Assembly: GCA_016182555.1 (NCBI GenBank)
Contig: JACPGJ010000007.1
Location: forward strand, 53-64,052
Length of the DNA: 64,000 nt
Direction of reading: 5' to 3'
DNA from: Candidatus Kerfeldbacteria bacterium
Lineage (GTDB): Bacteria > Patescibacteriota > Patescibacteriia > UBA9570 > XYC2-FULL-38-9
The stretch's first letter is position 1. Each line of letters begins with the position of its first letter. The position numbers and the translations under genes were made by a program. This document shows positions 7,926-58,430 of the stretch, piece by piece. Under the pieces are notes generated by a model that saw nothing but the letters and a program-made list of their open reading frames with translations, had not been told where the DNA came from and searched no databases.

Positions 7926-9521
7926 TTAATGAATTAAGCTTCGTGAAGTCATATCTGGTGGAATGGACAAACCCATCAGTGTTAAAATCGTCGGAGCTGC
8001 ATCAGAGAGTACACCAACCGGTTGCATGCGAGAGAGATCACCATCCGGAACAGGTGGCCACATCATCCGTTGTTGCCGCAACGTGGCATTCGCCATAATA
8101 AACGGTACAGGATTAGTCGAATGCTCCTTAATCATTTCTCCTGTTTGCAAATTCAATTTTTCTTCGGCGTTGCCGTGGTCGGCCGTTACAATGAGCGTAC
8201 CGTTCATCTGCAACACCGCGGCAGCCACCTTTCCAATAGCCACATCTTCTTCTTCAATCGCTTTGATCGTTGCTTGTAAGTTGCCGGTGTGCCCGACCAT
8301 GTCGGCGTTGGCAAAATTGGCCACCACAAATTGATACTGTTTGGTAGTCAGTTCAGTAACCATGCGATCAGCAATGCCATGCACAGACATGGCTGGCGTT
8401 TGATCATAAGACGTCACACGCGGTGAGGGAATTAAGACGCGTTCTTCATTTGGGTATTGTTCCTCTGTTCCTCCATTAAAGAAAAACGTGACGTGCGCAT
8501 ATTTTTCGGTTTCCGCAATATGGAGTTGGTGCATGCCCGCATCCGCAACAACTTTCGCAATGGGTGATTTCACATGATCGGGTTGAAAAGCGATTTTGAG
8601 CGGTAAGTTACTTTCATATTCCGTCATGGAAACAAACATCAAATTTTCAATCTGCCGGCCACGATCAAATTTTTGAAAACCCGGAAGAATAAATGTTTTT
8701 GTGAGTTGCCGTGCACGGTCTGCACGAAAATTGAAAAAGATAATTGCGTCATTATCGTTCATCGAACCGATCGGCGTGCCATCTTGCCCAATAATAACGG
8801 TCGGCTGAAATTCTTCATCAAATACCTGCTGGCCATACGCCACTTCAATGGCTTTGAGTGGACTATCAGAAACATGTTCCGATTTTCCATGGCGCATCGC
8901 GTTGTATGCCAATTGTGTTCTGTCCCAATGATTGTCACGGTCCATAGCGTAAAAGCGGCCCGAAAGTGAAGCAATTTTCCCCACATTCAGTTCGTGCATT
9001 TTTGTTTCCAGTGCCGCAATAAACCCAAGACCAGCATTGCGTGCTGTATCGCGGCCATCCAAAATTGGGTGAATGCGCACATGCTCACCAAGACCATTTT
9101 TCTGGCACATTTCGAGCAGTGCGTACAAATGTTGAATGCTGGAGTGAATTCCTCCATCGCTGACCATGCCCACCAGGTGCAAACGTGATTTGCGTTCTTT
9201 GACGGCATTCATGATACTCAAAAAGGCTTCATTACGAAAAAAAGATCCATCCGCAATGGATTTATTAATGAGCGGTAAATTTTGATAAATAATTTTTCCA
9301 GAACCAAGGTTCAAGTGTCCCACTTCCGAATTACCCATCTCGGCCCACGGCAATCCCACCACTTCGCCGGATGCATGCAACGTTACCGATGGATACTCTT
9401 GCATCAATTTATTCATATTTGGTGTGCGGGCAAGAGAGATTGCATTACCACGTGATGGTGCCGCAACACCCCAACCATCTAAAACGAGCAATACTAATGG
9501 AAGTAAAGCGGTGTTTGTCAT
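7926..9521 (-). CDS. gpmI: 2,3-bisphosphoglycerate-independent phosphoglycerate mutase
   Basis: LLVLDGWG, NSEVGHLNLG and VSDGGIHS motifs. Length 531 aa. Confidence 0.9.
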   Translation of the reverse strand: MTNTALLPLVLLVLDGWGVAAPSRGNAISLARTPNMNKLMQEYPSVTLHASGEVVGLPWAEMGNSEVGHLNLGSGKIIYQNLPLINKSIADGSFFRNEAFLSIMNAVKERKSRLHLVGMVSDGGIHSSIQHLYALLEMCQKNGLGEHVRIHPILDGRDTARNAGLGFIAALETKMHELNVGKIASLSGRFYAMDRDNHWDRTQLAYNAMRHGKSEHVSDSPLKAIEVAYGQQVFDEEFQPTVIIGQDGTPIGSMNDNDAIIFFNFRADRARQLTKTFILPGFQKFDRGRQIENLMFVSMTEYESNLPLKIAFQPDHVKSPIAKVVADAGMHQLHIAETEKYAHVTFFFNGGTEEQYPNEERVLIPSPRVTSYDQTPAMSVHGIADRMVTELTTKQYQFVVANFANADMVGHTGNLQATIKAIEEEDVAIGKVAAAVLQMNGTLIVTADHGNAEEKLNLQTGEMIKEHSTNPVPFIMANATLRQQRMMWPPVPDGDLSRMQPVGVLSDAAPTILTLMGLSIPPDMTSRSLIH

Positions 9522-15193: not shown

Positions 15194-16435
15194 TTATAAT
15201 GAGTCATTTTTTATCATCATACGCAAACCACGATACCAAAGTGAACACGCCTGCATAAAGGGTAACACAGATTTGAAATGACGAAAATCGACAAATTTGC
15301 GAACAAACCAGCCGATCATTCCTGTCAGCACCCATCCATTCGGAAGTTCCACAATACCATTTTTGCCACCCATGGTAATCACTATACCTTCATTTTTCAT
15401 GGTATAGTTTTCCAATGCTTCTTTTCGCAATAGATGCATGACATTCGCTGCAGCGATTGGTCCTTGATGCACCGCTTCATGGGCGGTTTGTGGCGCATAT
15501 TGTTTTTCGCCCACAGAACATTCTGCTGAATCTCCAATAGCAAATACATTATCTTGTTGTTCCAACTGTAACGTTGATCGCACCGTCAGTTGTCCCCGCT
15601 TCGTTAACACAAAATCAGTTTTCCGTAATATACTGTTTGCGCCAATGCCACCAGTCCAAATAATCATATCACCTTCTAATACCTCACCAGTCGTCGAAAT
15701 GACTTTGCCTTTTTCCGCCTGAGCAATTAAAAAATTGGTCTTCATCCGAATGCCTAATTTTTTCAAACGTTGTGCTGCAGCGGTTTGCGTTTTTTTACTA
15801 AACGGTGGCAATACGGTGTCGCGACCTTCCACAATGGTAATCGCAAAACAGTTCTTTTTCACCTGTGCAATACAGGCTTGTCGCATCTCGGCGGCGAGCT
15901 CCACCCCAGCCGCACCAGCACCACAAATAATAACATGCACCTGCGGTTGAGCTTCCATAAGGGCATACACGGTTTTACGAATATTCACGGCATGGTCGAT
16001 CCATTTAAATGGTATTGAATGTTCTTGCATACCTGGAATGCCAAAATAAAATGGTTCGCTACCCAGTGCAAAAATGAGGTAATCGTAATCAACTTCCCCC
16101 TTACTCGTCATCACCTGTTTGTGTTTGGAATCTACCGATTGTATGTCTGCTTGAATAAATCCAACTGATTGTTTACCCAAAACTGTGCGAATATTCAACG
16201 TGACGGTCTGTTTCAGTTGCTCTTCATTTTCAATCTCTTTTGCAGCTGAAGCAATTTCATAGAGGTCTGGAGTGAAGAGTTGAAAATCATTGCGATCAAT
16301 GAGAACAATATCGATATCTTCTTGAGTTCGGCGTTCGCTTTGGCGTTGCCGATGCTGGCGTTTCAACTTCCCCAATTCCAATGCCGCCGATAACCCAGCA
16401 AACCCTGCTCCTAAAATAACTACTCGTTTTGACAT
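15194..16435 (-). CDS. ndh: Type II NADH dehydrogenase (NDH-2) / FAD-dependent pyridine nucleotide-disulfide oxidoreductase
   Basis: VVILGAGFAGL and ICGAGAAGVELAAE dinucleotide folds, plus FAIGD. Confidence 0.8.
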   Translation of the reverse strand: MSKRVVILGAGFAGLSAALELGKLKRQHRQRQSERRTQEDIDIVLIDRNDFQLFTPDLYEIASAAKEIENEEQLKQTVTLNIRTVLGKQSVGFIQADIQSVDSKHKQVMTSKGEVDYDYLIFALGSEPFYFGIPGMQEHSIPFKWIDHAVNIRKTVYALMEAQPQVHVIICGAGAAGVELAAEMRQACIAQVKKNCFAITIVEGRDTVLPPFSKKTQTAAAQRLKKLGIRMKTNFLIAQAEKGKVISTTGEVLEGDMIIWTGGIGANSILRKTDFVLTKRGQLTVRSTLQLEQQDNVFAIGDSAECSVGEKQYAPQTAHEAVHQGPIAAANVMHLLRKEALENYTMKNEGIVITMGGKNGIVELPNGWVLTGMIGWFVRKFVDFRHFKSVLPFMQACSLWYRGLRMMIKNDSL

Positions 16436-16902: not shown

Positions 16903-17973
16903 ATGTATGGGAACAGGTGTACTTTCAAAAATCATCATCCAAGGTGGCGCATTACGACACTCGTAACCATTTCTGCCCTACTGTTACAGCTCATGGTAAT
17001 CATGGGTTGCGGCAATGAGGAAGACGCCAACGATACGCTCGATGAAACGATGTTCGGTGAAGGGGGCGTTGATCAACCGACACTGAACAAAACCACCGCC
17101 ACTTACACTTACCACCTCCCCTACTTCAGCGGTGAGAGCTACGTCGCAACCACCTACAGCGGCCACAACGCCTGGGACTTCAACCTTTCTGGTACTTCGG
17201 GCGATGGGGACTGTGGTGAGCCTGTTGTCGCTGTCACCAGCGGGAAAATTATTGGTGTGGTCAGCACCTCAGACGCGAACTGCGAAGGGTGTACGAATAG
17301 CCCTGGTAATTACGTGAAGCTGGACCACGACATCGATAGTAATACCTCGTACTACTATCATCTGCGGGATGTGTATGTGGTCAGCGGCCAGTGGGTGCAG
17401 CAGGGTCAGGCACTGGGAACGTTGGGTGATAGCGGAAATGCGAGTGCGTGCCATCTGCATTACGAAATTCGTAATTCGTCTGGAACGCAGATCACCCAGA
17501 GCACCAAGTTCTACTTCTACAAGAACGGTGCCTACACCTCGAACACGCTCTCCAGCGGTTCCACATATACCAGCTACAACCACTACATCATCAGCAATGC
17601 CGCAAGCCGAAATGGTGGCAGCAGTAAGGTCGGCACAGCCACCACCAAGGTTGCTTACCCCGCAGACGTCGAGGGGGAAGGCTTCGTGATGTATTACAGC
17701 GGCGGCAGCTACGGAACCTGCGGCATCTACTACGAAGCGAAAGGCTGCAAGGGTGGAGACTTCTGTCCCAGCTACAACAACACCAACAGCGCCTGGCTGG
17801 TGCGCACGGGGTTCTACGCGTGGTACGATGCCTGTGGTGAAGCAGACACCTGCTGGGTAGGCTTTCCCACTGGCGATGAATTCAGCGTCTCTGGTGGCGC
17901 GAAGCAGACCTTTGAGTACGGCTACCTGGTGTATAGTACCTCCACCGGCCAGGTCACGGCCTATTCCTACTGA
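16903..17973 (+). CDS. M23 (LytM-type) metallopeptidase lipoprotein, GC-rich gene
   Basis: HNAWD (HxxxD) and SACHLHYEI (HxH) zinc motifs. Lipobox VIMGC. The ORF track starts at TTG 16885; ATG 16903 follows GGAAAGGAGAAGGA. GC is visibly higher than the flanks and a 243-aa antisense ORF is open. Confidence 0.8.
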   Translation: MYGNRCTFKNHHPRWRITTLVTISALLLQLMVIMGCGNEEDANDTLDETMFGEGGVDQPTLNKTTATYTYHLPYFSGESYVATTYSGHNAWDFNLSGTSGDGDCGEPVVAVTSGKIIGVVSTSDANCEGCTNSPGNYVKLDHDIDSNTSYYYHLRDVYVVSGQWVQQGQALGTLGDSGNASACHLHYEIRNSSGTQITQSTKFYFYKNGAYTSNTLSSGSTYTSYNHYIISNAASRNGGSSKVGTATTKVAYPADVEGEGFVMYYSGGSYGTCGIYYEAKGCKGGDFCPSYNNTNSAWLVRTGFYAWYDACGEADTCWVGFPTGDEFSVSGGAKQTFEYGYLVYSTSTGQVTAYSY

Positions 17974-23031: not shown

Positions 23032-24150
23032 TTATATTTTCATTTTGTCAAGCAGGCTGAGTAATTTTGATCTATTATACTCATCAAATGGTAACGATAA
23101 TTTTATACTATGATTATTCGCACTAGGGTATGTAATCTTATAACTTGATAAAGGCTCAGCTAAAATCCCATATTTCATAAAATACTGAAACAAATTTTTT
23201 TCTTTAAGATGATCATGTATCACAATTAATGGAACTGCATCATGTGTATTATACCAATATAAACCTATCGCACTTAATTTCGTATAAATTTTTTCTTTAT
23301 ACTTTTTTACATCCCTTCTAACGTCATTTAAACGAAAAAAAACATTATTTGCACATAACGCAACATTTGTAGAATATAAAGAGGGTTCAAATGGGGGGAA
23401 AATATTTTTTATATATGGGGCTATATTATTTGAAAAAATGCCATAGCCTACTCGAAATGAAGCCAAACCGAATCCTTTAGAAAAAGATCTAATCACCGCT
23501 ATATTATTATATTGTTTTATGAGATGTATGATTGATTCTGAATCATCTATAAAATCCCCAAATGCTTCATCAATGAATAATAAAATATTTCTTTTGTGAC
23601 AAAGAATAGCTAGTTTGTGAATATCTTTTATAGGCATCACCCAACCAGTAGGATTATTGGGTCTATCAATATATATTACAGTTGGATTTAAAAAATCAAC
23701 TTTTTTAATAACACTATCAACTATATTAGAAAAATTATTAAATCGGGAAATAAATACTAATTTTCCACCGGCAGATTGAAATTCTGAAGGTATTTCATTA
23801 AACTGCGGTCCTACTCCTAATAATAATCCTGGAGTAAGCAGCTTATGTATAATTCTTTCTGCAATATTGAAGGATCCATGTCCTAAAAAAATATTATCTT
23901 CTAACTCATCTACATTAAATCTTTGTATTATGGAATTTTTTAGATCATTATAAATTTTTATATCTGGATACTTATTTGGATGAAAATTATTTTTTAAAAT
24001 TACAAAAGCTTTATCAATACAATCAAAAAAAATTTCTGGCCCCGAACTCATTCGACAATCCAAATAATTTAAATTATACGAATAATTACTAGCATAAGAG
24101 TCTCTCTTATAATCACAAATAGATTCTTTAATGAAATTATTAGGTTTCAC
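23032..24150 (-). CDS. PLP-dependent aminotransferase, class I/II (HisC / CobD-like)
   Basis: YIDRPNNPTG and RSFSKGFGLASFRVGY motifs. Strongly AT-rich gene. Confidence 0.75.
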   Translation of the reverse strand: MKPNNFIKESICDYKRDSYASNYSYNLNYLDCRMSSGPEIFFDCIDKAFVILKNNFHPNKYPDIKIYNDLKNSIIQRFNVDELEDNIFLGHGSFNIAERIIHKLLTPGLLLGVGPQFNEIPSEFQSAGGKLVFISRFNNFSNIVDSVIKKVDFLNPTVIYIDRPNNPTGWVMPIKDIHKLAILCHKRNILLFIDEAFGDFIDDSESIIHLIKQYNNIAVIRSFSKGFGLASFRVGYGIFSNNIAPYIKNIFPPFEPSLYSTNVALCANNVFFRLNDVRRDVKKYKEKIYTKLSAIGLYWYNTHDAVPLIVIHDHLKEKNLFQYFMKYGILAEPLSSYKITYPSANNHSIKLSLPFDEYNRSKLLSLLDKMKI

Positions 24151-28101: not shown

Positions 28102-28653
28102 TCAAAGAGGATTCACCCCGCGGTGCGTCCTCTTTATTTTATACTCAAGTTTTCGTTTCAAATGATTGATATCTGTAAAATGTGCTCCGACAAGCTGCTT
28201 AATATTTCTAGCCGTTTTCTGTGTGTTGGCAATAACCCGCACCGTTCTATTTTTTTCCAGGAGATACTCCAGCAGAATACAAAAATCTCCATCACCACTC
28301 ATCAGAATCATTCCGCTATATTGCCCTAACGTTCTCATAGCATAAAATGTCAAATCAACATCGCAATTTGCTTTTCTTCTCACCTGACCATTGCTCTGCT
28401 TGTGGTAAATAACTGGTTTCAATACGGTGATATACCCCATTTCATCGAGCTTTGTATAAAATTTTTGTTGCTTAATATTTTTTTCGTCTAAGCCACCGAA
28501 ATAAAAAATTTTCTCTACCTGGTATCTTTCTTGTAAATACTGATACAGTTTTTCAAAATCGAGCTTCCAGTCTTCACCATCTCGTGTGACTGTGCCATAA
28601 ATGATATTTGATGCGTCAATAAATGCGTAAATCGGTCTGTGATTATTATTCAT
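28102..28653 (-). CDS. NYN-domain (LabA-like) putative RNase
   Basis: AFIDASNI ... CDVD ... SGDGDF acidic catalytic residues typical of NYN/LabA. Confidence 0.7.
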   Translation of the reverse strand: MNNNHRPIYAFIDASNIIYGTVTRDGEDWKLDFEKLYQYLQERYQVEKIFYFGGLDEKNIKQQKFYTKLDEMGYITVLKPVIYHKQSNGQVRRKANCDVDLTFYAMRTLGQYSGMILMSGDGDFCILLEYLLEKNRTVRVIANTQKTARNIKQLVGAHFTDINHLKRKLEYKIKRTHRGVNPL

Positions 28654-28758
28654 ATATTTGAACTACCGCGGAGGGAGAATGTGGCCCACCCAAACGCAAA
28701 CCATTCTCTCGCCCCACGGCAGCAGACGATGCATTCATCTGCCACCACTACGCCCGAC

Positions 28759-29166
28759 TTACGCAACCGTCACTTCTTCTTCCAAGAACGGAATGGTTTC
28801 TAGCTCTTCCGCATCCATTTCATTCTTCGCTTTCTTCACCACCAACACACGGTCGATGGAACGCACCACCACCTCGGTGAGGTATTTTTTTGTTCCGTCT
28901 TCCCCAACCCAGCTCCGAGAATGCAGTTTGCCTTCCAGCACCACTTGGTCGCCTTTCTTGCAATGCTCTTCCACAAAGACCGCAGAGTTCGTCCATGCGA
29001 CGCATTTATGGTAGTCCACGCCTTTATTCCACTCTCCATCCTTGCCTTTCCAGGAAAAATTAGTGGCGATACTAAACGTTGCCTTTTTCTGCCCCGACGG
29101 CAAAATTTTTGCTTCCGGATCAGCCGTAAGTTGGCCAATCATCGTGACACGATTCAAATTGCGCAT
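28759..29166 (-). CDS. ssb: Single-stranded DNA-binding protein
   Basis: NRVTMIGQLTADPE ... FSIATNFSW.GKDGEW ... HKCVAW OB-fold pattern. Acidic tail with IPF. Confidence 0.85.
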   Translation of the reverse strand: MRNLNRVTMIGQLTADPEAKILPSGQKKATFSIATNFSWKGKDGEWNKGVDYHKCVAWTNSAVFVEEHCKKGDQVVLEGKLHSRSWVGEDGTKKYLTEVVVRSIDRVLVVKKAKNEMDAEELETIPFLEEEVTVA

Positions 29167-33589: not shown

Positions 33590-33970
33590 TTGCGTTAGAT
33601 TAATGATGAATGGCATTTGGTGCCTGCCCCGGTGTCGGCGACAAAACAGATGATTGACTATCAAGAACGCATTGCGGCAAAGCGCAAAAAAACCAGTGTG
33701 CCCTATTACGACGAATATGGCTCGCGCCTGGTTGCTATGCAGAAAAGTTTAAATAATACCATTTTGAATATTTGATAAGGAATTTATAGAAAAACAGACT
33801 TCTACTGATTTTTATTTTGGCTAATATTAGATAAATAATAACAGACTGTGCATAAAATTCATTGAAAAGTATGATGAAGTATGATAAATTAGATGAGCAA
33901 AAATTCGTTTTTTGAAAATTTTTTGGTTTTACCACCTAAGCCACCCAGCAAAGGTGGAAGGAGCAGACAA

Positions 33971-35713
33971 ATGAATTCGAATGAAATCGCCCAGATTCTG
34001 GGCAGCGGTAAAAGTGAGACCCAGCCCTTCGGTTTCCGGGTGCTCGTTGACCCGACCGAGGGTTTTGAGCGTTATGAAACCGTATGGGCGGAGAACGGAG
34101 GCCTGCGGGCCTTCTTGAGGAAGCTGGAAGAGATCGTTGCTCATTATGGTTGGGGCGCAGTCAAGCACCACAACCATAACAACGATTTCGCCAGTTACTT
34201 CACACACCTGGGAGTGCAATCCCAGGGTTCGGCCCTTCATCAGATACAGGCGCTCGTGCGGAATCTGGAAACACAGACGCAGGGTCCATCTCGGTGGGCC
34301 CGAACTGCAAATGTGTATCAGATCTTTCCGAGAGCGTTCAACCTCTCGGGCTGGAGGGAATTCCACGACAGACCACCCGGCACCGCAAAACCGTTTTTCG
34401 AAGAATGGGCTGCGGAGGACTTCGAAACCCTCAACGACCTCGGCTTCGATACGGTCTGGCTGATGGGGACTTTCCCTATCGGCAAGCGCGGCGCCAAGGG
34501 TGGCGAGACCGGAAATGCCGGCTCGCCCTATGCAACTACCGACCACCAGGCGCTGGAACTCAGCCTGGGGACCGAAGCGGACTTCAAACGCTTCGTTGAC
34601 ATGGCCCACGAGTGTGGAGTTCGGGTGATCCTCGACATCATCCCGAACCACACCTCGCTGGACTCGCGGCTCCTGCGCGAGCATCCAGAGTGGTTCCTTC
34701 ACCACACAAACCCGGTCGCCGGAGAGACCGCGCCCTTCGGTTCGTTCGAGCATATCGACGGAGAAGGCAAACTCTGGTGGATCCGACTCGCAGGATGCGA
34801 GTACTACGGCAAACTCACGCCGTGGTGGGATGTTGCTCAGTTGAACCTGGCACATCCTGCCGTGCGGGAGTACGTCGTAACTACGGCCTGCCGCTGGATT
34901 CGAGACTTCGGCATCGATGGGTACAGAATCGACATGGCCTATCAGCTCCTCAACAGCTACTACTCTCGCAACTGGAAGGTCCAGATGCCAGAGCGGGAAC
35001 TGCTTGAGCAGATGATCACGGCCGTGCGCGAACTGCGCCCCGATGCCGGCTTCTTCGGAGAAGCCTACGGCCGCGAAGAAGACCTTTTTCTTTGCGGATG
35101 TGACACGACACTGCAGAAATGCACGTGGTTGGACGGGCTTCGGTGGCACCAGGGCCGTGGATGCAACGTGGAGCGGATCCGAAAGGAAATTCGCAACGCG
35201 GCAACAATCCACGCCCAAACCGACGGCCCGGGTGGCTACATCTTCGTGGGAAACCACGATGAAATGCCACACACGGAGGCGTACGGTCCGTGGACACGAG
35301 GCTGCGCAGTCCTCACGATATGCCAGCCAAACGGACTGCTGATCTTCAACGGTCAGGAGATCGAATTCAGCCAGCAGTCGAAGGACGACTGGCCGAAACC
35401 GATTCCGTTCACGCGGCCGGTCAAGATCGACTGGGCAGGTGCTGACCCGGAAACCGCAAGGTTCTACCGGTGGGTGTTTCGTACTTCGAAGAGCATTAGA
35501 GAAGAGCTCGGAGATGTACAGATGCACCCGCTGGAAGATCTCAACGGCAACTGGGTGGGCTACGCGCTCACCGGCAAAGACACCACGACGCGGTACCTCG
35601 TCATCGCCAACCCAACGGACCGGGCAACGATGGCGCATGTGTACCACACCGATCTCGGGATCAATCACTCGACACCACTCATGCCATACGGCTACAAAGT
35701 GGTTCGGGTCTGA
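33971..35713 (+). CDS. GH13 alpha-amylase-family glycoside hydrolase, GC-rich gene
   Basis: GH13 regions DIIPNHTS, GYRIDMAYQ, GEAYG and FVGNHDE. ATG 33971 follows GGAAGGAG. ORF-track start 33893 lies in AT-rich flank. A 579-aa open antisense frame reflects high GC. Confidence 0.85.
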   Translation: MNSNEIAQILGSGKSETQPFGFRVLVDPTEGFERYETVWAENGGLRAFLRKLEEIVAHYGWGAVKHHNHNNDFASYFTHLGVQSQGSALHQIQALVRNLETQTQGPSRWARTANVYQIFPRAFNLSGWREFHDRPPGTAKPFFEEWAAEDFETLNDLGFDTVWLMGTFPIGKRGAKGGETGNAGSPYATTDHQALELSLGTEADFKRFVDMAHECGVRVILDIIPNHTSLDSRLLREHPEWFLHHTNPVAGETAPFGSFEHIDGEGKLWWIRLAGCEYYGKLTPWWDVAQLNLAHPAVREYVVTTACRWIRDFGIDGYRIDMAYQLLNSYYSRNWKVQMPERELLEQMITAVRELRPDAGFFGEAYGREEDLFLCGCDTTLQKCTWLDGLRWHQGRGCNVERIRKEIRNAATIHAQTDGPGGYIFVGNHDEMPHTEAYGPWTRGCAVLTICQPNGLLIFNGQEIEFSQQSKDDWPKPIPFTRPVKIDWAGADPETARFYRWVFRTSKSIREELGDVQMHPLEDLNGNWVGYALTGKDTTTRYLVIANPTDRATMAHVYHTDLGINHSTPLMPYGYKVVRV

Positions 35714-39538: not shown

Positions 39539-40666
39539 TTAATATTCAAGACCACTCAAATAGCTGGTCGCATTTCGAATATCAATGCCTCCAACAGATC
39601 GTTCCTGTGCTAACTCTTTTACCAGTTGAATACTCGGAACGCCATATTTTTTGTGAAAATAGTGTAGAGAACGTGAGAGATTTTTTTCTTTCCATTTTGT
39701 TTCAAGAAATAATTGCGGTTCGCCATTGCGTACAATACAAAAATCAACCTCTTGCCCCTGTTTTGTTCTCAGATAATGGAGCGCATGCAGCTTACCCGTG
39801 TAATCTGTTTTTCCACACACATATTTTAATAAACTAAGTGCAACCATGTTTTCAAAACGCGCACCATTATCACCCTCAACAAGCCCTGTGTCATAAAAAT
39901 AAATCTTCGGCTCTTTTAAAATAGAGCGCGCAATATTTTTTGAATACGGCGTGACGCGAAAAATAATATACAACGCTTCTAATATATCTATATATCTTTT
40001 CACTGTTGCTGGGGATGCTTGAACATCGCGGGCAATGGAAGAATACGATACACTTGAACCAACGGAGCGACGTAACAAATCAAAAATAATTTGCATTGTT
40101 TGAATGTCATTAACGCGTTCAAAGTCTAAAACATCTTCACGAATCAATCCGTCTGTATATTGCTTACGCCAACGTTGCGCCTCTTCATCGGTTTGAGCAA
40201 GCAGTGGTTCCGGGAAACCACCACGTTGTATTAACGCATCAATGTCATTGGCATAGGGTGTACCTCGTAATTCAGCAAGAGAAAATGGCAACAGACGATG
40301 CACAAAAAAACGCCCGGCCATAGAATCGCCTGTTTGTCGAAATGTGTTCAAGCGTGCACTTCCCGTAACCAAAATATGCAATTGTTCTGGTTTGGTATCG
40401 TATACACCTTTCAAAAAATTTTTCCACCCCTTCAACTTATGCAGCTCATCAAGAATCAACAAATCGGTTTGTTGCGGCCACTCTATACGTTGAATAACGC
40501 GACGATGATCAATATTATCGACATTTAAATAGGTCACCATCGAAAATGAACCTTGTGTACCAATATGTTTTGCCAGCCATGTTTTTCCTGCTTGACGTGG
40601 ACCAACAAGAAACACCATCTTTTTTTGCAAATCTTGGAGGATAAGCTGCTCTTGTACTCTTTTCAT
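39539..40666 (-). CDS. AAA ATPase (AAA_14 + DUF4143)
   Basis: VFLVGPRQAGKTWL Walker A. DUF4143-like C-terminus. Confidence 0.8.
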   Translation of the reverse strand: MKRVQEQLILQDLQKKMVFLVGPRQAGKTWLAKHIGTQGSFSMVTYLNVDNIDHRRVIQRIEWPQQTDLLILDELHKLKGWKNFLKGVYDTKPEQLHILVTGSARLNTFRQTGDSMAGRFFVHRLLPFSLAELRGTPYANDIDALIQRGGFPEPLLAQTDEEAQRWRKQYTDGLIREDVLDFERVNDIQTMQIIFDLLRRSVGSSVSYSSIARDVQASPATVKRYIDILEALYIIFRVTPYSKNIARSILKEPKIYFYDTGLVEGDNGARFENMVALSLLKYVCGKTDYTGKLHALHYLRTKQGQEVDFCIVRNGEPQLFLETKWKEKNLSRSLHYFHKKYGVPSIQLVKELAQERSVGGIDIRNATSYLSGLEY

Positions 40667-50374: not shown

Positions 50375-50824
50375 ATGGAATCCATCGTGAACAAATATGC
50401 CCGGTCGAAATATGAAATGCTCGAGTCGTTCGAAGCGGGTTTAGTATTGACCGGCGCTGAAGTGAAGTCTGTGAAAAAAGGGGCAGTGAACCTGAAAAGC
50501 GCCTATATTGGCATTGAACAGGGTGAGTTATGGCTGAAAAACATGCATATTTCTCCGTATCAGCAAGCCAACCAGCCGGGCTATGAACCCGAACGCCCAC
50601 GAAAAATTCTGCTTCGCCGCAGCGAAATTGCGACACTCATGGGAAAATTGCAACAAGAAGGCTTGACATTGATACCAGAAAAAGTGTATAGTAAGCACGG
50701 TATTGTGAAAGTAAATGTCACGCTTGCTCGCGGTTTGAAATTGCATGATAAGCGTCAAAAAATAAAAAAACGGGATACCGAGCGCCAAATGCAACGCATG
50801 ATGAAGCAAAAAATGCATTCATAA
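50375..50824 (+). CDS. smpB: SsrA-binding protein
   Basis: YEMLESFEAGLVLTGAEVKS ... NMHISPY ... RKILLRRSEI. Confidence 0.9.
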   Translation: MESIVNKYARSKYEMLESFEAGLVLTGAEVKSVKKGAVNLKSAYIGIEQGELWLKNMHISPYQQANQPGYEPERPRKILLRRSEIATLMGKLQQEGLTLIPEKVYSKHGIVKVNVTLARGLKLHDKRQKIKKRDTERQMQRMMKQKMHS

Positions 50825-50890: not shown

Positions 50891-51284
50891 GGGGATGTTA
50901 AACGTTGATGGTCCATTTCAAAAACGAATTGCGTACTGAGTTTATAGTCTCATCAAAACTATCAAATTCTAAGTGCAAACTTAGTGAGCCGCGCAAAGAA
51001 CGCATTTGCCAACGCATTTGCTCCTTCTTTGAATGCGGTACCTGTTGTCGCTTAAATCCGACATCCGTCGCCTGAGTTGATGTCTCATAGGCTCTCTGCG
51101 GCGCAACTTCATGAGACTCACGTTGCCGAGGTGTTTGGCTCGGAAGCGAACATTTGAACAAACTGGGAGTTGCCGTGTTTGGCTCGCTTCAAGCGGCTGT
51201 TCCGAGAATATCAAGCGAGATACGTACGTAGAAATTCGTTCTTTGGGTGACCAGACGCGGGTGTGAGGCCCGCCATCTCCACCA
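50891..51284 (+). ncRNA. ssrA: tmRNA (ssrA), ~394 nt
   Basis: Immediately downstream of smpB. 5' GGGGAUG pairs with 3' CAUCUCC-ACCA; the G3:U wobble is the AlaRS identity pair. T-arm-like GCGGG-UGUGAGG-CCCGC. One candidate tag frame reads ...ANAFAPSLNAVPVVA then TAA at 51053-51055. Confidence 0.7.
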
Positions 51285-52493: not shown

Positions 52494-52539
52494 GGCAATA
52501 CGATATACTCTGTGGTGCGTCATCGTATATCGTATTGCC
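52494..52539 (+). terminator. Perfect 14-15-bp hairpin (GGCAATACGATATA...TATATCGTATTGCC) between rplT and tRNA-Asp
   Basis: Seen directly. Only a short TTT follows. Terminator or processing structure. Confidence 0.4.
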
Positions 52540-52545
52540 CCATTT

Positions 52546-52619
52546 GGGGGTGTAGCTCAGTTGGTTAGAGCGCTTCCCTGTCACGGAAGAGGCCGCGGGT
52601 TCGAGTCCCGTCACTCCCG
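52546..52619 (+). tRNA. tRNA-Asp (anticodon GTC)
   Basis: Cloverleaf: acceptor GGGGGUG/CACUCCC with G73, U8-A9, D-arm GCUCAGUUGGUUAGAGC, anticodon stem CUUCC/GGAAG, loop CUGUCAC, T-arm GCGGG-UUCGAGU-CCCGU. CCA not encoded. Confidence 0.9.
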
Positions 52620-52650
52620 CAAACGGAACCTTGTTCGAACGAAAAAAGAA
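52611..52650 (+). repeat. attL-like direct repeat: tRNA-Asp 3' end plus downstream flank (core CTCCCGCAAACGGAA)
   Basis: Copied imperfectly at 57411-57450: 15-nt identical core and about 36 of 42 positions overall. Confidence 0.6.
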
Positions 52651-52737
52651 AGCCGCTAGTCATAACGATTTTTCTTGTTGGAAAGACAAAGCAACATTAC
52701 TCTATTCAAAACAGAGTGATTTAGGTATTATAGGATT

Positions 52738-53002
52738 ATGACTTTTACTGAAAAAGAAAATATTATTAAACAAGCAGCTAAGCAGTATACTCGAGAGCAT
52801 AAGAAAGAATTTTATGAAAAAGTTGTTATCAAAAATATTTTCCCAGAAAGAAACAAAAACAGATCCGTTTTCAGATTTTTTTAGAAACACAGATTCTCGT
52901 CACAAAACCAAAGTATTAAAAAAAGTGGCAAGAAAGGCAAATGAAGATCAGCGAAAATTAATAGAAAAAAATCATCGCTTATCTGGCGATTCTGCAATAT
53001 AA
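52738..53002 (+). pseudogene. Two overlapping small ORFs (48 and 62 aa) just 3' of tRNA-Asp; possibly one frameshifted gene
   Basis: ORF 52738..52884 and ORF 52814..53002 are in different frames and overlap by about 70 nt. Confidence 0.25.
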
Positions 53003-53163
53003 TATTGGTGTTGCAATACATCCACTCAGAGAACGAAATATATTATTGATTATCATGTTCAAATAAAGACATATTCCTAGAATAATATGCATATTTAAAG
53101 TAAAAAAAGATCCGCCTATTGCCTCCACAATAGACGGATTTTATTACGTGAAAATGTGCGCTC

Positions 53164-53652
53164 TCACTTGCGGTCAAGCTCAATAATTGCTCGAGCGACC
53201 GCTTTGACAGCCGCATTGAGTGCGGCGCCTGTTTGCCCCACAGCGAGGAATGACCGGAGAAAGGACATCCCTCTCCCTATATCCTCCGCCGCACACGATC
53301 GCGTGTACGCCTGCTCTTTCCAGAGGAGAAAGTAGGCAAGATTTCCTCCTTCTCCTTTGTACTCTCCTGCTTTCGCCTTTCGCGCGGCAGCGGTCATGAG
53401 TGCTTCGAGGGACATCCGTGCTTCGCCCTCGAGCCTGAGCGTGTCTTCCAACACGAGCAGTCCGTTCCACATGACACTCCGCTTCTCTTGAGGCAGCCCA
53501 GCGAGGATCTGCTCTTTAGTGATCACAGCAAGCAACTTTTCTCGCCCATCACTTTCTTTCCTCACCTGTTCCGCAATTTCTGCAGGCGTCCCTTGATATG
53601 CCTGCCACACGTTCAAATCACCAGTCTCAACCGTACACTGAATCTGAAACAT
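53164..53652 (-). CDS. Hypothetical protein (162 aa), GC-rich, in the tRNA-Asp island
   Basis: ORF with clearly elevated GC. No recognisable motif. Confidence 0.45.
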   Translation of the reverse strand: MFQIQCTVETGDLNVWQAYQGTPAEIAEQVRKESDGREKLLAVITKEQILAGLPQEKRSVMWNGLLVLEDTLRLEGEARMSLEALMTAAARKAKAGEYKGEGGNLAYFLLWKEQAYTRSCAAEDIGRGMSFLRSFLAVGQTGAALNAAVKAVARAIIELDRK

Positions 53653-53836
53653 ATTTTCTCCTCCTTCTTCGAATTCCTCTTCGTAAGGTTTCCGCCAGCG
53701 AGACCACCCCGCCTACGCTACCTGCCAAAAATTAATTGCCTATTTTAGAATTCTGTAATGCACCCACCAGAGGATGGTGAACGACTTCCCGGTTACCATG
53801 TGAACACCGGGCATTTGGTAGGGACGAAAGGCTAAA

Positions 53837-54388
53837 CTAGAGATATCGTCTTGGAATCCAGTCGTCCTTTACGAATTCTCGACTTCCTTTCGGAAGCAGA
53901 ATTTCATAATCGAACTCGGAATCCATGTAAGAGAACACTGTCGGTTTTTCACCAACAATTATCTCTTCGTGGCCGATACGCTGCTTCCCTTTTGGAAAAG
54001 CAAAGTACCGTTCGATGGTACCGCCATGGTTGTGGTTGGTTATATCGAATACCACCAAACCATGGGTTGATGGAATACGACGAGCTGCAGCTTGCACTTC
54101 AGAAGGAATCTCCTCATCGAGAGTAACAGCTTCCTTTTTCCCCTCAGTCACGAACAGCTGTACGAGCTTGTCCACGTCTTTGGGAAGATTGCAAGTTCTT
54201 CGGCATTTCCCGTCACATTTCCCTTCCACCCTGTACCTGTGCTGGCGGTGCCCAGCATAGAGGTCGTGTGCGATGTGGACATTTCCCACACAGATGTATT
54301 CCACCACGAGAGCGGACTCACCACGCTCCGTCTCATATTCCCTCTCATAGACGAAACCACGGATTGCAGTAATCTTCGAGGTCTTCAT
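53837..54388 (-). CDS. Hypothetical protein (183 aa), GC-rich, His/Cys-rich segment VHIAHDLYAGHRQHRY...GKCDGKC..C
   Basis: ORF with elevated GC. Possible metal-binding cluster. No family assigned. Confidence 0.45.
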   Translation of the reverse strand: MKTSKITAIRGFVYEREYETERGESALVVEYICVGNVHIAHDLYAGHRQHRYRVEGKCDGKCRRTCNLPKDVDKLVQLFVTEGKKEAVTLDEEIPSEVQAAARRIPSTHGLVVFDITNHNHGGTIERYFAFPKGKQRIGHEEIIVGEKPTVFSYMDSEFDYEILLPKGSREFVKDDWIPRRYL

Positions 54389-54589
54389 AGCGTCCTCCTT
54401 CAGTTGTCAAATTTCTTTCTTCAATGTCGAGCTCATCCCGTCACTGAAGAACTGGATATAGTATCCCAAATGCGTAAAAAAGTGAATACAAGTTATTTCA
54501 AAATTTATACATTTTTATTTTATATTTGATTTATTTATAAAAAAATGATATAATTTAAATTGACAAAATAATCAAAAACATTCAAATTT

Positions 54590-55339
54590 ATGAATATCCA
54601 CAAACGTTTACAAAGCATTGGCCTGACTCAATCAGAAACCGACATCTACCTCTTTCTCCTCCAAAATAGCCTTTCCTCTCCCCCTGTCATTGCAAAAGGC
54701 ACCGGAATTGCCCGCACCAATTGCTATCACATTCTCCAAAGTCTCAAAGAAAAACAATTGATATCCGAACAATCCATCTCAAAAGGAAAACGCAAAGCCT
54801 ATGTTGCTTGCGATCCACAGGCGCTCATCGAATCAATGAACCGAAAAACTGCAGCAGCGCAAGAATTGCTTCCTGATCTAAGAGCCCTATATACCGTACA
54901 AAAAAATAAACCGCTTATCCGATTCTTTGATGGATTTGAAGAGGTAAAGCAGATCTATGATCAATCGCTCACAGCAAAAAAAATTATGGGAATTGGTTCA
55001 ACAAAGCGCTTACAAGAACTCGATCCGCAATTCTATACGCATTATCTAAAACAAGTGCAAAAAAAAGGAATTGTATTTTATGATATTCTTTCACATCCAT
55101 CTGGCGAACATGCCGGCCCACACATGAAACAAATTGTGAAAGGATTATATGATATGAAACTAATCCCAAAGCAGTATGGCGATTTTGCAACAGATATATT
55201 AATTTGGGAAGATACAATCGCTCTCCTTACACTCGAAGAACCCATTTTTGGCACTACACTCACCAATCCTCTTCTTGCCAACACATTTTTGCTTCTCTTT
55301 AAAGTGTTCTGGGAACAATTGTCGAATTTTGATAATTGA
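54590..55339 (+). CDS. TrmB-family transcriptional regulator
   Basis: N-terminal wHTH LTQSETDIYLFLLQNS...IAKGTGIARTNCYHILQSLKEKQLI. TTGACA about 30 nt upstream. Confidence 0.65.
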   Translation: MNIHKRLQSIGLTQSETDIYLFLLQNSLSSPPVIAKGTGIARTNCYHILQSLKEKQLISEQSISKGKRKAYVACDPQALIESMNRKTAAAQELLPDLRALYTVQKNKPLIRFFDGFEEVKQIYDQSLTAKKIMGIGSTKRLQELDPQFYTHYLKQVQKKGIVFYDILSHPSGEHAGPHMKQIVKGLYDMKLIPKQYGDFATDILIWEDTIALLTLEEPIFGTTLTNPLLANTFLLLFKVFWEQLSNFDN

Positions 55340-55479
55340 TTTTTATGGTAATGAGAAGGAAGGCAGCGGTTGCTTCCCCCGCGCCAACAATGCCTTCCTT
55401 TCCTTCACTCATTTCGCAATTTTTCTATATAACACATTCGAGCAGCAGATAATAAGTTCCGAAAATTTCGGAAAGAAAA

Positions 55480-55549
55480 ATATAGTGTAAACAGGGTGGG
55501 GTTAATCTATGTTCATTTGAGGCACCACCCCTTACACACTATATTTTTT
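55480..55549. terminator. Bidirectional terminator-like long hairpin (ATATAGTGT..GGGTGG / CCACCC..ACACTATAT), A-run before and T6 after, between convergent TrmB genes
   Basis: Inverted repeat and flanking runs seen directly. Confidence 0.5.
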
Positions 55550-55637
55550 GTAACACCCATCTCATCTGTCCTATTGCTAATAAAGTGCTAGATTCAGGTG
55601 TTTAGCTTGAGTTTCATAGCTTTATAAAATTATCTTC

Positions 55638-56432
55638 TTATTTTTGCAATCGCTTACGAATATCTTGATCAAATTTTTCTGAATATTCAAAGGCGAATTC
55701 AAACATTTTTTGTAAGCAATCGGCTATGGGTTTACTTTTAATGACAAGTGCGAAATTTTCTTCGTAAGAAAAAAATATCACCGTGTGCTTATATACATTC
55801 ACTTCAATAGGATAATTACATTCGGCAGGAATAAGTCTAGAATGACGAATATGTTTCTGTTCTGTTTCAAGAGTATGTTGAATATTAAATAGTGTCGCAG
55901 GAATAATAGCTTTCACAGAAATTTTCTTTGCAACACGTTTTTTATAATAATCGGGATATAGGGATGGTAAATATTTCAATTCATCTTCATTACTTCCATA
56001 CCCAATAATGTGATCTGCTTCTTCCAATACTTGTAAAAACGCTTTCTTCATTCCTTCTTTTCCTTCATAGTAATACATTTTCGGTTTTACGGTTTCATAT
56101 TGCTGCATGGCGCGCAATTCTGGCAGCGCTGACTGAATTTTTTGTTCTTGATCTTTCAGTTGTTGCTGACGCTGTTGCACAAAACGGAGAATTTCAGTTG
56201 GATCATCAACAGAAAAGAGATACGTATTTTTTCTTTTCATGCGCTTCACAATATGAAACTCATTACTCAATTTCTGTAGCGCAAGTAATACAGTTGTTTT
56301 AGGAATTTCTAATCTTCGCGCTATTTCTGACGCCTTCTGTGGACTTTTTTTAAGCAATTGTATATAGCAGTGTATTTCCAACTCATCGAGTCCGATATTT
56401 TGTAGAAGGTTGGAAATTGATTGTTCTTTCAT
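55638..56432 (-). CDS. TrmB-family transcriptional regulator (second copy)
   Basis: wHTH LDELEIHCYIQLLKKSPQKASEIARRLEIPKTTVLLALQKL. Confidence 0.65.
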   Translation of the reverse strand: MKEQSISNLLQNIGLDELEIHCYIQLLKKSPQKASEIARRLEIPKTTVLLALQKLSNEFHIVKRMKRKNTYLFSVDDPTEILRFVQQRQQQLKDQEQKIQSALPELRAMQQYETVKPKMYYYEGKEGMKKAFLQVLEEADHIIGYGSNEDELKYLPSLYPDYYKKRVAKKISVKAIIPATLFNIQHTLETEQKHIRHSRLIPAECNYPIEVNVYKHTVIFFSYEENFALVIKSKPIADCLQKMFEFAFEYSEKFDQDIRKRLQK

Positions 56433-56573
56433 ATATCGTCAAAAATTGTTGATGTTTTTTTATCTTTCTTTAGCAAAAATAATGAATATAAATATAAAAT
56501 AAATATACATTATTGTTACCCTATACAGTTATAGTATGTTTGTAAAGCACCTATACAATTCGTGGGGTAACAT

Positions 56574-56795
56574 ATGACATTCCACACTCTTCTTCTTGCA
56601 TTGCTCTATGGTTTTGGTATCACATTCATCAGCTATCCATTGAACGCATGGGAGTACAAATGTCCACGAAGAAAAGCTCTATTCTTTTGTGTAGGAGTAA
56701 TTCTACTGGGTATATATCTGTATTACGATACAATTTCTATACCCGCGCAAACTGATAAACCGCATAAGAAAGGAAATGTACAATGTCAGGAATAA
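56574..56795 (+). CDS. Small membrane protein (73 aa)
   Basis: Two hydrophobic helices. ORF only. Confidence 0.35.
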   Translation: MTFHTLLLALLYGFGITFISYPLNAWEYKCPRRKALFFCVGVILLGIYLYYDTISIPAQTDKPHKKGNVQCQE

Positions 56796-57229
56796 CATTC
56801 CTCATCATTATGTGTGTATATGCCATACACATTGGGATCGCACTCAAGGTTGCAGAGTACATGCGCAAACACCAAACTCCGGAAGGCGCAAAAGAATGGT
56901 CAGTATTTAGCATCATGGGAGCGTTTGGGATAATTGTTCTGTTAGCTCCCAGCGATTCACCTTATTCAGCTCTCTGGCAAATGGATATAGGCGATATCGC
57001 GCTTATCGCATTCTCCGTAACCTATGCGATGATGTATCTTGGTTGGGGCATGATGCAGTGGCATCTCTACAAGATGAACAAATTGTGGAGAGCTCGTTTC
57101 AAACGGAGCATCTTTCTGAGTATCAGTGTCGGACTATTCCTTATATCTGGACTATACACCACCGCACTGCTCAAAAATGCTCCTCACTACTCTCCACCCA
57201 AAAAAGTATGTACTTGTGATTGTTCATAA
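56783..57229 (+). CDS. Small membrane protein (148 aa, 4 TM)
   Basis: Hydrophobic helices. Overlaps the previous ORF by 13 nt. Confidence 0.4.
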   Translation: MSGITFLIIMCVYAIHIGIALKVAEYMRKHQTPEGAKEWSVFSIMGAFGIIVLLAPSDSPYSALWQMDIGDIALIAFSVTYAMMYLGWGMMQWHLYKMNKLWRARFKRSIFLSISVGLFLISGLYTTALLKNAPHYSPPKKVCTCDCS

Positions 57230-57320
57230 GTAGTGATGAAATGGTTCGGCAGTACCAGTTGCGTTGAGAGCTTAGGAGGAGCTTTCCGCACAAAACTGCC
57301 TTTTTTATTTTAAACAGGAT

Positions 57321-57352
57321 GAAAGATATAGTGTGAAGGGGGTGGGGTTAAT
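57321..57352. repeat. Second copy of GAAAGA-ATAGTGT-GGG-GTGGGGTTAAT motif (first copy at 55471-55506)
   Basis: About 27 of 32 positions shared. Sits about 60 bp before the attR-like repeat. Confidence 0.45.
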
Positions 57353-57410
57353 ACAAAAAACTAGACTCCCATTTATTAATATTCTCCACCCAAAATGTTC
57401 AAACAGCGTT

Positions 57411-57450
57411 CACTTGCTCCCGCAAACGGAATATTATTCGAACAAAACAT
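57411..57450 (+). repeat. attR-like direct repeat of the tRNA-Asp 3' end/flank
   Basis: CACTTGCTCCCGCAAACGGAATATTATTCGAACAAAACAT versus tRNA-flank TCACTCCCGCAAACGGAACCTTGTTCGAACGAAAAAAG. Confidence 0.6.
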
Positions 57451-57509
57451 GAAACATACGCTATCTTTTTGACAATGAAGCTATTTTTAGGTATCTTCTA
57501 TATATTCAT

Positions 57510-57689
57510 ATGTCAAAAAAAGATATCGTAAAAGCTTTACAGAAGTATCAAAAATCTCGTCCGAATAGCACCCTGCGACGCAATTATTTGCGTTCATTCA
57601 CACCGAAGATGATTTATCGTACAACAAAAACAGAAAATCCAACCACAACAAAGGCATTAGTGAAAAAAATCTTAGATCAACTCTCATAA
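57510..57689 (+). CDS. Small ORF (59 aa) upstream of fic; candidate FicA-like antitoxin
   Basis: TTKTEN matches the inhibitory [ST]xxxE[GN] motif. Ends 3 nt before the fic ATG. Below the ORF-track size cutoff. Confidence 0.45.
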   Translation: MSKKDIVKALQKYQKSRPNSTLRRNYLRSFTPKMIYRTTKTENPTTTKALVKKILDQLS

Positions 57690-57692
57690 GGT

Positions 57693-58310
57693 ATGCCAAA
57701 AGGCAGGGGTGAAACGAGTTATAAAGATACTGCTTTTGGCATCATTCCTCGTTCAAAACTCATTCCATTAGAAATAGAGGGTATTAAACGTGTCTGGGAT
57801 TTTGTTTTACAGAAACGCCAACAATCTAAAATTCCACTTACTCCAGAATTTCTCAAAAAAATTCATCACGTGGGTTTTGCATGGATATTTCCAGAGATAG
57901 GAGGAAAATTTAGAACTATTGATGTTGAAGTCTCTTTACATACTCCTCCGAAATTTTATCTTGTACCCCAACTCATGAAAGATTTTTGTAATGACTTAAA
58001 AGAACGACTGAAGCATCTTCCATCTATTCAAGAAGAAAACTATCTTGATGAATTAAGTGAATTACTGGCATGGACGCATCACCGATTCCTGTGGATTCAT
58101 CCATTTGCAGATTATAATGGTCGTATTGGTCGTTTGTTAATAAACATTGTGTTATTGAACTTAGATTTGCCAACGATTGAACTACAAGTAGAAACTCCAG
58201 CTGCAAGAAAACGCTATGTGAAAGCGCTACAGGCTGCTGACGAGTATAATCTTGCGCCATTGAAAAAAATAATTGAAAAAGCAATTGAAGAAGCTGTTAA
58301 AGAAATTTAG
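57693..58310 (+). CDS. fic: Fic/Doc-family protein (AMPylator-type)
   Basis: Fic motif HPFADYNGRIGR (HPFx[DE]GNGRxxR). Confidence 0.85.
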   Translation: MPKGRGETSYKDTAFGIIPRSKLIPLEIEGIKRVWDFVLQKRQQSKIPLTPEFLKKIHHVGFAWIFPEIGGKFRTIDVEVSLHTPPKFYLVPQLMKDFCNDLKERLKHLPSIQEENYLDELSELLAWTHHRFLWIHPFADYNGRIGRLLINIVLLNLDLPTIELQVETPAARKRYVKALQAADEYNLAPLKKIIEKAIEEAVKEI

Positions 58311-58430
58311 CCCAGGGTTTAATCATTAAAACCAAAAAACTAAATTCCCACGGATTACCATGCTGCATCCAAAAAGTTCGAAAAACGGAGTACTTGCCAC
58401 GCCACTGCTTCAATTCTAACTTCTTGCGCG

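Follow-up and report, generated by a model that had tools for sequence, protein, structure and literature searches.

A GC-rich cassette of two hypothetical genes in a tRNA-Asp islet of a Candidatus Kerfeldbacteria genome

We have analyzed a stretch of 64 kb (64,000 nucleotides, hereafter the window) from a metagenome-assembled genome (MAG) labelled Candidatus Kerfeldbacteria, within the candidate phyla radiation (CPR, or Patescibacteria). Our subject is a GC-rich cassette of about 1.3 kb that holds two open reading frames (ORFs), ORF-A and ORF-B. Before the cassette lie smpB, the tmRNA gene, infC, rpmI, rplT and tRNA-Asp, and beyond it two regulators of the TrmB family, a pair of small membrane ORFs and a Fic protein. 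The cassette reads on the minus strand from ORF-A (54388..53837) through a 184-nt spacer into ORF-B (53652..53164). The two ORFs had been pointed out in an earlier note made from the sequence, and both exist at the positions given there, on the minus strand. The features of the cassette are the following:

53110..54440, minus strand: GC-rich cassette block of ~1.3 kb, with 46-61% GC in a 100-nt composition profile and 11-36% in the flanks next to it
54394..54399, minus strand: AGGAGG Shine-Dalgarno (SD) sequence of ORF-A, perfect, with 5 nt between SD and ATG
53837..54388, minus strand: ORF-A, 183 aa, first gene of the cassette; hypothetical protein (NCBI MBI2410778.1, HYV32_02725)
53653..53836, minus strand: A-B spacer, 184 nt; chi-square periodicity p=0.71, folding z=+0.57, no Rfam match
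53660..53665, minus strand: AGGAGG SD sequence of ORF-B, perfect, with 7 nt between SD and ATG
53164..53652, minus strand: ORF-B, 162 aa, rich in Ala, Leu and Glu; hypothetical protein (NCBI MBI2410777.1, HYV32_02720)
53110..53139, minus strand: intrinsic terminator from a promoter/terminator scan, a 13-bp stem followed by a T-run, 24 nt past the ORF-B stop

Two non-overlapping ORFs of at least 160 aa on the same strand appeared in none of 2000 dinucleotide shuffles of the block; a single ORF of at least 162 aa appeared in 6% of them. Codon-position periodicity was as strong as in bona fide genes (ORF-A, p=4e-5; ORF-B, p=1e-3; for comparison, argS, p=5e-6; the neighboring regulator TrmB1, p=7e-3; smpB, p=1e-2), and it was absent from the non-coding controls (tmRNA, p=0.47; A-B spacer, p=0.71; positions 52621-53109, p=0.89). 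Under the host codon model, the annotated frame was the best of the six for both ORFs. Open frames antisense to the cassette had also been listed, and they are indeed present (59-145 aa), but chance alone would produce frames of such length from a sequence of this GC content: in the shuffled block, the longest ORF had a mean of 112 aa and a 99th percentile of 212 aa, so we consider the antisense frames a chance product of composition. According to these results, the cassette is a compact, 1.3-kb, protein-coding unit of two genes, bicistronic or tandem, with one terminator closing the pair. A riboswitch or leader in the A-B spacer is unlikely, since the spacer shows no excess of RNA structure (z=+0.57). 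The two products have pI values of 6.7 and 6.4, and no signal peptide or transmembrane segment was seen on reading their sequences.

To find relatives of ORF-A, we relied on an exhaustive HMMER scan of 1.84 billion sequences that represent 15 billion proteins. Residues ~95-183 of ORF-A matched 20 representatives (P0003-P0022) with E=1e-9 to 1e-3 (phmmer, 1.3e-9 to 9e-4), one of which, the 1600-aa repeat protein P0005, we discarded as a spurious additive match. Scans of genomes and metagenomes added six family loci (scan alignment A4), and ORF-A gave E=1e-16 to 1e-5 against family members of other loci. Identity to the homologs over the C-terminal domain is 30-42%. A word-indexed search of 5.8 billion proteins returned only self-matches for ORF-A, and a profile search with the family alignment A2 yielded nothing further. 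The only taxonomic labels in the family are from Patescibacteria (the window MAG and locus L010), and other family loci carry ordinary bacterial core genes, namely dnaA, dnaN, rnpA, dnaE and an aminoacyl-tRNA synthetase gene.

Neither ORF-A nor ORF-B had a match in Pfam, NCBIfam, PHROGs or PADLOC, and none was found among PDB sequences, whether a single sequence or a profile served as the query. The 20 family members were likewise without a match in Pfam, PHROGs, PADLOC or PDB sequences. The best Pfam hit of ORF-A, DUF3011, reaches 14.5 bits (E=0.034) and stays below the 25-bit gathering threshold; one of the 20 family members matches it. Searches of IMG/VR, GenBank phages and PLSDB plasmids gave no match for ORF-A, ORF-B or the family, and we found nothing on these proteins in the literature. 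The earlier note could place neither ORF in a known family. This remains correct for curated families (Pfam, NCBIfam, PHROGs, PADLOC and PDB sequences), but ORF-A can now be assigned, by sequence similarity, to a rare, unnamed and uncharacterised family of small proteins, of which it is a divergent member. Two segments of the protein need to be told apart:

53840..54106, minus strand: C-terminal domain of ORF-A, residues ~95-183, ~85 aa, all-beta, common to the rare family
54191..54292, minus strand: His/Cys cluster of ORF-A, in residues 33-66 (C33, H38, H41, H47, H50, C58, C62 and C66)

AlphaFold2 with alignment A2 models residues 100-183 as an all-beta domain with a predicted local distance difference test score (pLDDT) above 90, and gives less than 50 for residues 1-9 and 36-91; the single-sequence prediction reaches a pLDDT of 37. 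In Foldseek searches the model found nothing significant, the best values being E=0.9 in the PDB and E=0.26 in BFVD. Invariant residues in A2 are H119, R127, L165, P166, S169, W177 and Y182, and near-invariant ones are P106, L111, G122, F129, A130, G134, D156, G168 and E171. The motifs of the domain are hGLhhFE..SH..G...R.FA..G, IG..P, D.N.dY and LP.GS.EF/Y..G.W.P, with a family end of Y.Y. ORF-A itself ends in WIPRRYL, with one Tyr in the invariant column and a tail ~5 residues shorter than the A-x-Y-x-Y end of the family. With its conserved His, Arg, Asp, Ser, Glu, Trp and Tyr residues, the domain may hold a site that binds a ligand or a protein, or else a small catalytic site, and it would most likely be a small binding or catalytic module to which the variable N-terminus supplies specificity.

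The family is exemplified by a 150-aa protein of the L010 Patescibacteria MAG. Most members also have an N-terminal domain of ~60 aa with the pattern Y-[IV]-A...G-x-G-x-T-x-E-E-A...C. ORF-A shares with them the C-terminal domain of ~85 aa and differs in carrying the His/Cys segment in place of this N-terminal domain and in ending in RRYL instead of Y-x-Y. The lack of the usual N-terminal domain is seen both with hhalign (probability 0.1%) and with a hidden Markov model (HMM) of 13 N-terminal domains, for which ORF-A is not among the window matches listed (E up to about 36). ORF-A therefore combines the C-terminal domain of the family with a unique, lineage-specific N-terminus. The architectures of the family are modular: locus L015 (1198-2507) has tandem paralogs, one of them repeating the N-terminal G-x-G-x-T-x-E-E-A unit about three times, the C-terminal domain is duplicated in P0009, and L014 (3194-4183) encodes a distant paralog of 329 aa.

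ORF-B presents no relatives. In the word-indexed set of 5.8 billion proteins it found only itself, the exhaustive HMMER scan gave no homolog, and none was found among the ORFs adjoining the homologs of ORF-A. By these sequence searches, ORF-B qualifies as a true ORFan, an orphan specific to its lineage. Its N-terminus (QGTPAEIAEQV) bears a likeness, by eye only, to the N-terminal domain of the family, which was rejected by HMM and hhalign comparisons.

One could argue that ORF-A binds metal through its His/Cys cluster and makes up a conserved module of two genes together with ORF-B, as the earlier note had suggested in part. The cluster is indeed present in ORF-A, where residues 38-66 show H-x2-H-x5-H-x2-H followed by C-x3-C-x3-C, and the two genes are co-oriented and share a common terminator. 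However, the cluster residues align with no conserved column of A2, they lie in a segment with pLDDT below 50, and no metal-binding or zinc-finger model of Pfam matches ORF-A. Since ORF-A lacks the usual N-terminal domain and has the His/Cys segment in its place, where the homologs carry a different domain, the cluster is lineage-specific and conservation in the family lends no support to metal binding. Nor is the pair conserved: the A-B pairing is absent in 11 other loci, with no ORF-B-like ORF beside any ORF-A homolog, an outcome that the earlier note itself had regarded as speaking against its proposal. The downstream neighbors of the homologs are mutually unrelated, save for one near-identical pair from close relatives. 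We consider a metal-binding protein in a conserved module unlikely.

Regarding composition, ORF-B has 54.6% GC and ORF-A 48.6%, with a window mean of ~43%. The flanks of the cassette have 11-39%, and the limits of the block are sharp: on the left, positions 53000-53149 have 25-29% GC and 53150-53299 already 57-60%; on the right, 54300-54399 still has 53% and 54450-54599 only 11-18%. Core genes of the window have 43-50% (argS, 47.6%), so ORF-A is GC-rich only relative to its AT-rich flanks. The statement that both genes are far more GC-rich than the surrounding genome is thus accurate with respect to the flanks, but not for ORF-A with respect to core genes. ORF-B, ranking about second or third in GC among 50 window ORFs of at least 120 aa, is a true outlier. 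Two window genes are equally or more GC-rich: an M23 peptidase with an LGFP repeat (16903-17973, plus strand; 54.5% GC, GC3 0.68), with a 5-nt SD at its annotated ATG, and an alpha-amylase-family gene (33893-35713, plus strand; 57.6% GC, GC3 0.69), whose only SD precedes an in-frame ATG 78 nt further on. An aminotransferase gene (23032-24051, minus strand) is another compositional outlier, with 27.4% GC, and the genome is a GC mosaic.

Codon usage, for which a comparison with core genes had been proposed, sets both ORFs apart. Measured against 28 core genes, Karlin codon bias reaches 0.58 in ORF-B and 0.56 in ORF-A, as compared to 0.355 +/- 0.052 (maximum 0.53) for size-matched subsamples of core genes. 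The in-frame coding log-likelihoods of the two ORFs are -0.03 and -0.06, versus 0.30 +/- 0.08 for core genes.

The translation signals show an even clearer contrast. AGGAGG occurs 10 times in the 64 kb (10.9 expected by chance), three of them inside the 1.3-kb cassette, and two of these three precede the ATGs of the ORFs. An SD of at least 5 nt before any in-frame start within +/-120 nt was found in only 3 of 35 other window genes, and with independent gene calls in 1 of 19 host genes. We infer that the expression signals of the cassette are foreign to the host and regard this contrast in translation initiation as the most telling foreign signal. Many host genes have TATAAT-like boxes ~10-20 nt from the start codon, for example upstream of 9518-11569, 15194-16435 and 39539-40666. 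Such boxes near starts, together with the rarity of SD sequences, suggest that host mRNAs are leaderless or have very short leaders.

The cassette had also been described as cargo of a tRNA-Asp island. Here the evidence agrees, as an att-like repeat of 38 nt that includes the 3' end of the tRNA recurs 4.8 kb downstream. The features of this islet outside the cassette are the following:

52546..52620, plus strand: tRNA-Asp (GTC), anchor of the islet, detected by ARAGORN and with 72 bits for the Rfam tRNA model
52614..52651, plus strand: attL-like repeat copy of 38 nt, made of the last 7 nt of tRNA-Asp and 31 nt downstream
54389..54589, no strand assigned: divergent control region between ORF-A and TrmB1, 201 nt, very AT-rich
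54590..55339, plus strand: TrmB1, TrmB-family regulator, 249 aa (Pfam PF01978, 5.6e-11), divergent from ORF-A
55638..56432, minus strand: TrmB2, TrmB-family regulator, 264 aa (PF01978, 7.3e-12), convergent with TrmB1 and inside the islet
57417..57454, plus strand: attR-like repeat copy, 84% identical, with the 15-nt exact core CTCCCGCAAACGGAA; it closes the 4.8-kb islet

A 27-nt degenerate pattern derived from both repeat copies finds only these two sites in the 64 kb, with 0 expected from shuffles. Within its 4.8 kb, the islet contains, besides the GC-rich cassette, an AT-rich non-periodic stretch, both TrmB genes, which are AT-rich, and two small membrane ORFs, and GC swings by at least 10 points in both directions. 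It resembles known tRNA-linked islands in lying directly after a tRNA, in its imperfect direct repeat including the tRNA 3' end, in its mosaic and atypical composition and in its accessory, hypothetical cargo. It differs from them in its size of only 4.8 kb, in the lack of integrase, excisionase and transfer genes among the larger ORFs scanned, in a repeat that covers just 7 nt of the tRNA and in having a GC-rich sub-block within an otherwise AT-rich islet. Pfam matches of the larger ORFs across 52.6-63.7 kb were TrmB (twice), Fic, DUF4153, DUF2975, peptidase U32 and a zinc finger. Around the 1.3-kb block itself, a search for target-site duplications or inverted repeats gave only a weak 28-nt, 71% AT-rich inverted match. 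The label of tRNA-Asp island is thus supported in the sense of a small, decayed or mobilisable islet, within which the cassette stands out as a sub-block of different composition.

In the Logan assembly of run SRR12113422, contig L001 spans positions 52582-57304 of the window, and its neighbor contigs end at 52574 and start at 57277. The islet is therefore assembled as a contig of its own of ~4.7 kb; no islet-free allele was seen. These breaks fit a branching at the islet edges, although a tRNA sequence common to other organisms of the sample could equally explain the break inside the tRNA.

Several other elements were observed in and around the islet. The AT-rich region between tRNA-Asp and the cassette (52621-53109) has no codon periodicity (p=0.89), which makes the small overlapping ORFs called at 52739-52885 and 52814-53002 either doubtful as genes or the remains of a decayed one. 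Between the convergent TrmB genes there is a 24-nt inverted repeat (55476-55499 / 55525-55548, …TATAGTGTAAACAGGGTGG / CCACCCCTTACACACTATA…), a third copy of which (88%) lies at 57321-57352, just before the attR-like repeat. The tmRNA (50891-51284, plus strand), directly after smpB (50375-50824), is full-length in Rfam with 86.8 bits and absent from the ARAGORN output.

The TrmB genes of the window, the only two in its 64 kb, both lie next to ORF-A. The cassette had been described as convergent with the downstream TrmB regulator, which turns out to be the reverse: ORF-A and TrmB1 are divergent, head to head across 201 nt. The hexamer TTGACA, noted before in a promoter region shared by the genes, does occur twice in this spacer (54405-54410 on the minus strand and 54560-54565 on the plus strand), but the first copy is 5 nt from the ORF-A SD and the second 24 nt before the TrmB1 ATG, and neither suits a -35 box. 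The best sigma-70-like promoter for TrmB1 is at 54526-54554. A 39-nt AT-rich element is common to the upstream regions of TrmB1 and TrmB2 (54500-54538 and 56479-56517), in the same orientation relative to each gene, and the 12-mer AATTGACAAAAT before TrmB1 (54557-54568) recurs just before the TrmB gene of locus L004 (just upstream of 6007). Both may be operators or promoter elements. No palindromic operator common to the TrmB1 orthologs of the window and L009 was found.

The association with TrmB genes extends in part to the homologs of ORF-A. Four of eight informative loci (the window, L004, L009 and L010) have a TrmB gene at no more than 4 kb from the family gene, and the other four (L003, L011, L013 and L014) do not. 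In L009, homolog P0004 is divergent from one TrmB gene, and the TrmB1 ortholog (43% identity, E=2e-76) is 0.8 kb away. Characterised TrmB regulators with divergent targets offer a parallel to this head-to-head arrangement of ORF-A and TrmB1, and of P0004 and the TrmB gene in L009, but they control genes of sugar metabolism, none of which is present here, and only 4 of 8 loci show the association.

The context of the homologs hints at mobility, although the family was found in no viral or plasmid record: a Bro-N protein is encoded nearby in L011, and in L004 a tyrosine recombinase lies 2.5 kb away from the family gene. Besides, the few SD-led genes of L004 and L009 cluster around the family genes. 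A second uncharacterised family (~190-230 aa, 28% identity, E=3e-12) was observed near ORF-A homologs at L004 8241-8930 and L015 2578-3144, and is absent from the window. As a tentative and somewhat unlikely conjecture, the family of ORF-A and the small SD-led ORFs near it in the window, L004 and L009 might be remnants of unrecognised CPR mobile elements or phages that keep strong SD signals, with a C-terminal domain of new fold onto which a lineage-specific His/Cys metal site would have been grafted.

Taken together, the reading that we favor, and that we hold to be probable, is that of a two-gene coding cassette, horizontally acquired, residing in an integrase-less tRNA-Asp islet, in which ORF-A belongs to a rare family and ORF-B is an orphan. 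In mechanistic terms, the cassette would have been acquired horizontally and would now be nested in a 4.8-kb mosaic islet inserted at the tRNA-Asp 3' end. Transcription of both genes would start in the AT-rich divergent region that they share with TrmB1, and their translation, unlike that of most host genes, would rely on SD pairing; the products are predicted to be cytoplasmic, accessory, non-housekeeping proteins.

Several points weigh against this reading. ORF-A does not exceed the host core genes in GC content. The family genes are GC-richer than their own locus in 12 of 12 loci compared, so the GC excess may in part be a trait of the family itself. A comparison of codon bias with four other CPR loci gave no convincing donor (0.46-0.50 at best). 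No integrase or recombinase was found in Pfam scans of the larger ORFs of 52.6-63.7 kb, which left out a 73-aa ORF at 56574-56795. The coding status of ORF-B has no backing from conservation. On the sense strand, folding of both gene regions is much stronger than that of shuffles (ORF-B, z=-3.5 to -3.7; ORF-A, z=-4.7 to -5.3; with a background mean of z=-0.67 and a standard deviation of 1.55 in 43 windows). Finally, the probable control of the cassette by TrmB1 is read from position only (divergent, 201 nt).

The first two of these points could also be taken to mean that the cassette genes are native to Kerfeldbacteria and owe their GC excess to amino-acid composition or to a bias intrinsic to the family, rather than to transfer. 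The GC values of ORF-A at the three codon positions (0.58/0.36/0.52) do resemble those of argS (0.57/0.34/0.52). Nevertheless, both genes are outlying in synonymous codon usage and have perfect SD sequences, which this genome almost never uses; moreover, the sharp GC boundaries coincide with the edges of promoter and terminator, and the genes are inside a repeat-bounded islet at a tRNA. A native origin is, in our view, rather unlikely, and we infer horizontal acquisition of the cassette.

The neighborhood of the islet also brings to mind a toxin-antitoxin or anti-phage defence module. Just past the attR-like repeat, a 59-aa ORF (57510-57689, plus strand) with the sequence TTKTEN, which we take to fit [ST]xxxE[GN], the motif by which class I Fic antitoxins inhibit, is separated by 3 nt from a downstream Fic gene (57693-58310, plus strand; Pfam 2.7e-16, motif HPFADYNGRIGR). 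A 55-nt direct repeat of 75% identity (57354-57408 and 58333-58387) flanks the two, which look like a FicTA module inserted beside the islet. ORF-A and ORF-B would form another small two-gene operon in this variable islet, and the N-terminal domain of the ORF-A family, with its G-x-G-x-T-x-E-E-A helix motif, recalls the fold of HicB-type antitoxins and double-stranded RNA-binding domains (dsRBDs), since its profile gives sub-threshold matches to HicB (6g1c and 6g1n; E=0.17 and 0.33) and to dsRBDs (1o0w and 1qu6). These matches are non-significant (E>=0.17), however, and neither ORF-A, which is itself without a HicB-like domain, nor ORF-B matches the profile; no HicA-like partner is present. 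PADLOC gave 0 matches for ORF-A, ORF-B and the 20 family members, the 184-nt spacer is atypical of a toxin-antitoxin pair, both proteins have a near-neutral pI, and the pairing is not conserved. We consider a defence or toxin-antitoxin role of the pair quite improbable.

The strong folding raises the question of whether the GC-rich block, or the ORF-B part of it, could be a structured non-coding RNA, with the ORFs as by-products of high GC, the more so as ORF-B is without homologs and a single ORF of its length is found in 6% of shuffles. Against this, Rfam searches of 52500-54700 returned only tRNA-Asp above threshold, other matches being far under their gathering scores and the cassette showing none even at E<=10. 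The codon periodicity of the two ORFs is that of real genes and is lacking in the controls (tmRNA and spacer). Both ORFs begin with an ATG behind a perfect SD, and ORF-A has protein homologs at 30-42% identity. Moreover, the antisense strands of the cassette (z=-2.7 and -3.2) and the bona fide GC-rich alpha-amylase gene of the window (z=-5.0) also fold well in the same test, and therefore strong folding is not specific to RNA genes. We take it for a property of the GC-rich foreign genes rather than for evidence of an RNA gene. An RNA gene in place of the two coding genes is very improbable. Among the background windows, three on the minus strand also folded far better than shuffles (1501-2030, z=-3.5; 28501-29030, z=-4.2; 34501-35030, z=-5.0), the last of which falls within the alpha-amylase gene.

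An assembly chimera or contaminant fragment, to which an abrupt GC switch within a MAG contig might point, is barely credible, as two independent Logan assemblies (SRR12113422 and SRR12113419) are 100% identical to the window across both GC junctions and the switches in GC fall at functional gene edges.

It is common to find hypothetical genes in small tRNA-linked islets, above all in CPR genomes, and the horizontally acquired cassette that we favor is of this ordinary kind, a routine accessory cassette of hypothetical genes in a tRNA-linked CPR islet. The family of ORF-A is rare and undescribed, with only Patescibacteria labels so far, and, having no Pfam model and no PDB or BFVD relative, it is a candidate for a new domain entry. 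An SD-led cassette in an SD-poor host offers a simple and checkable marker of foreign DNA in such genomes, and the same contrast raises the question of how the cassette genes are translated in the host. Finally, TrmB regulators recur beside islets of small ORFs, and they may regulate accessory or mobile DNA in CPR bacteria.

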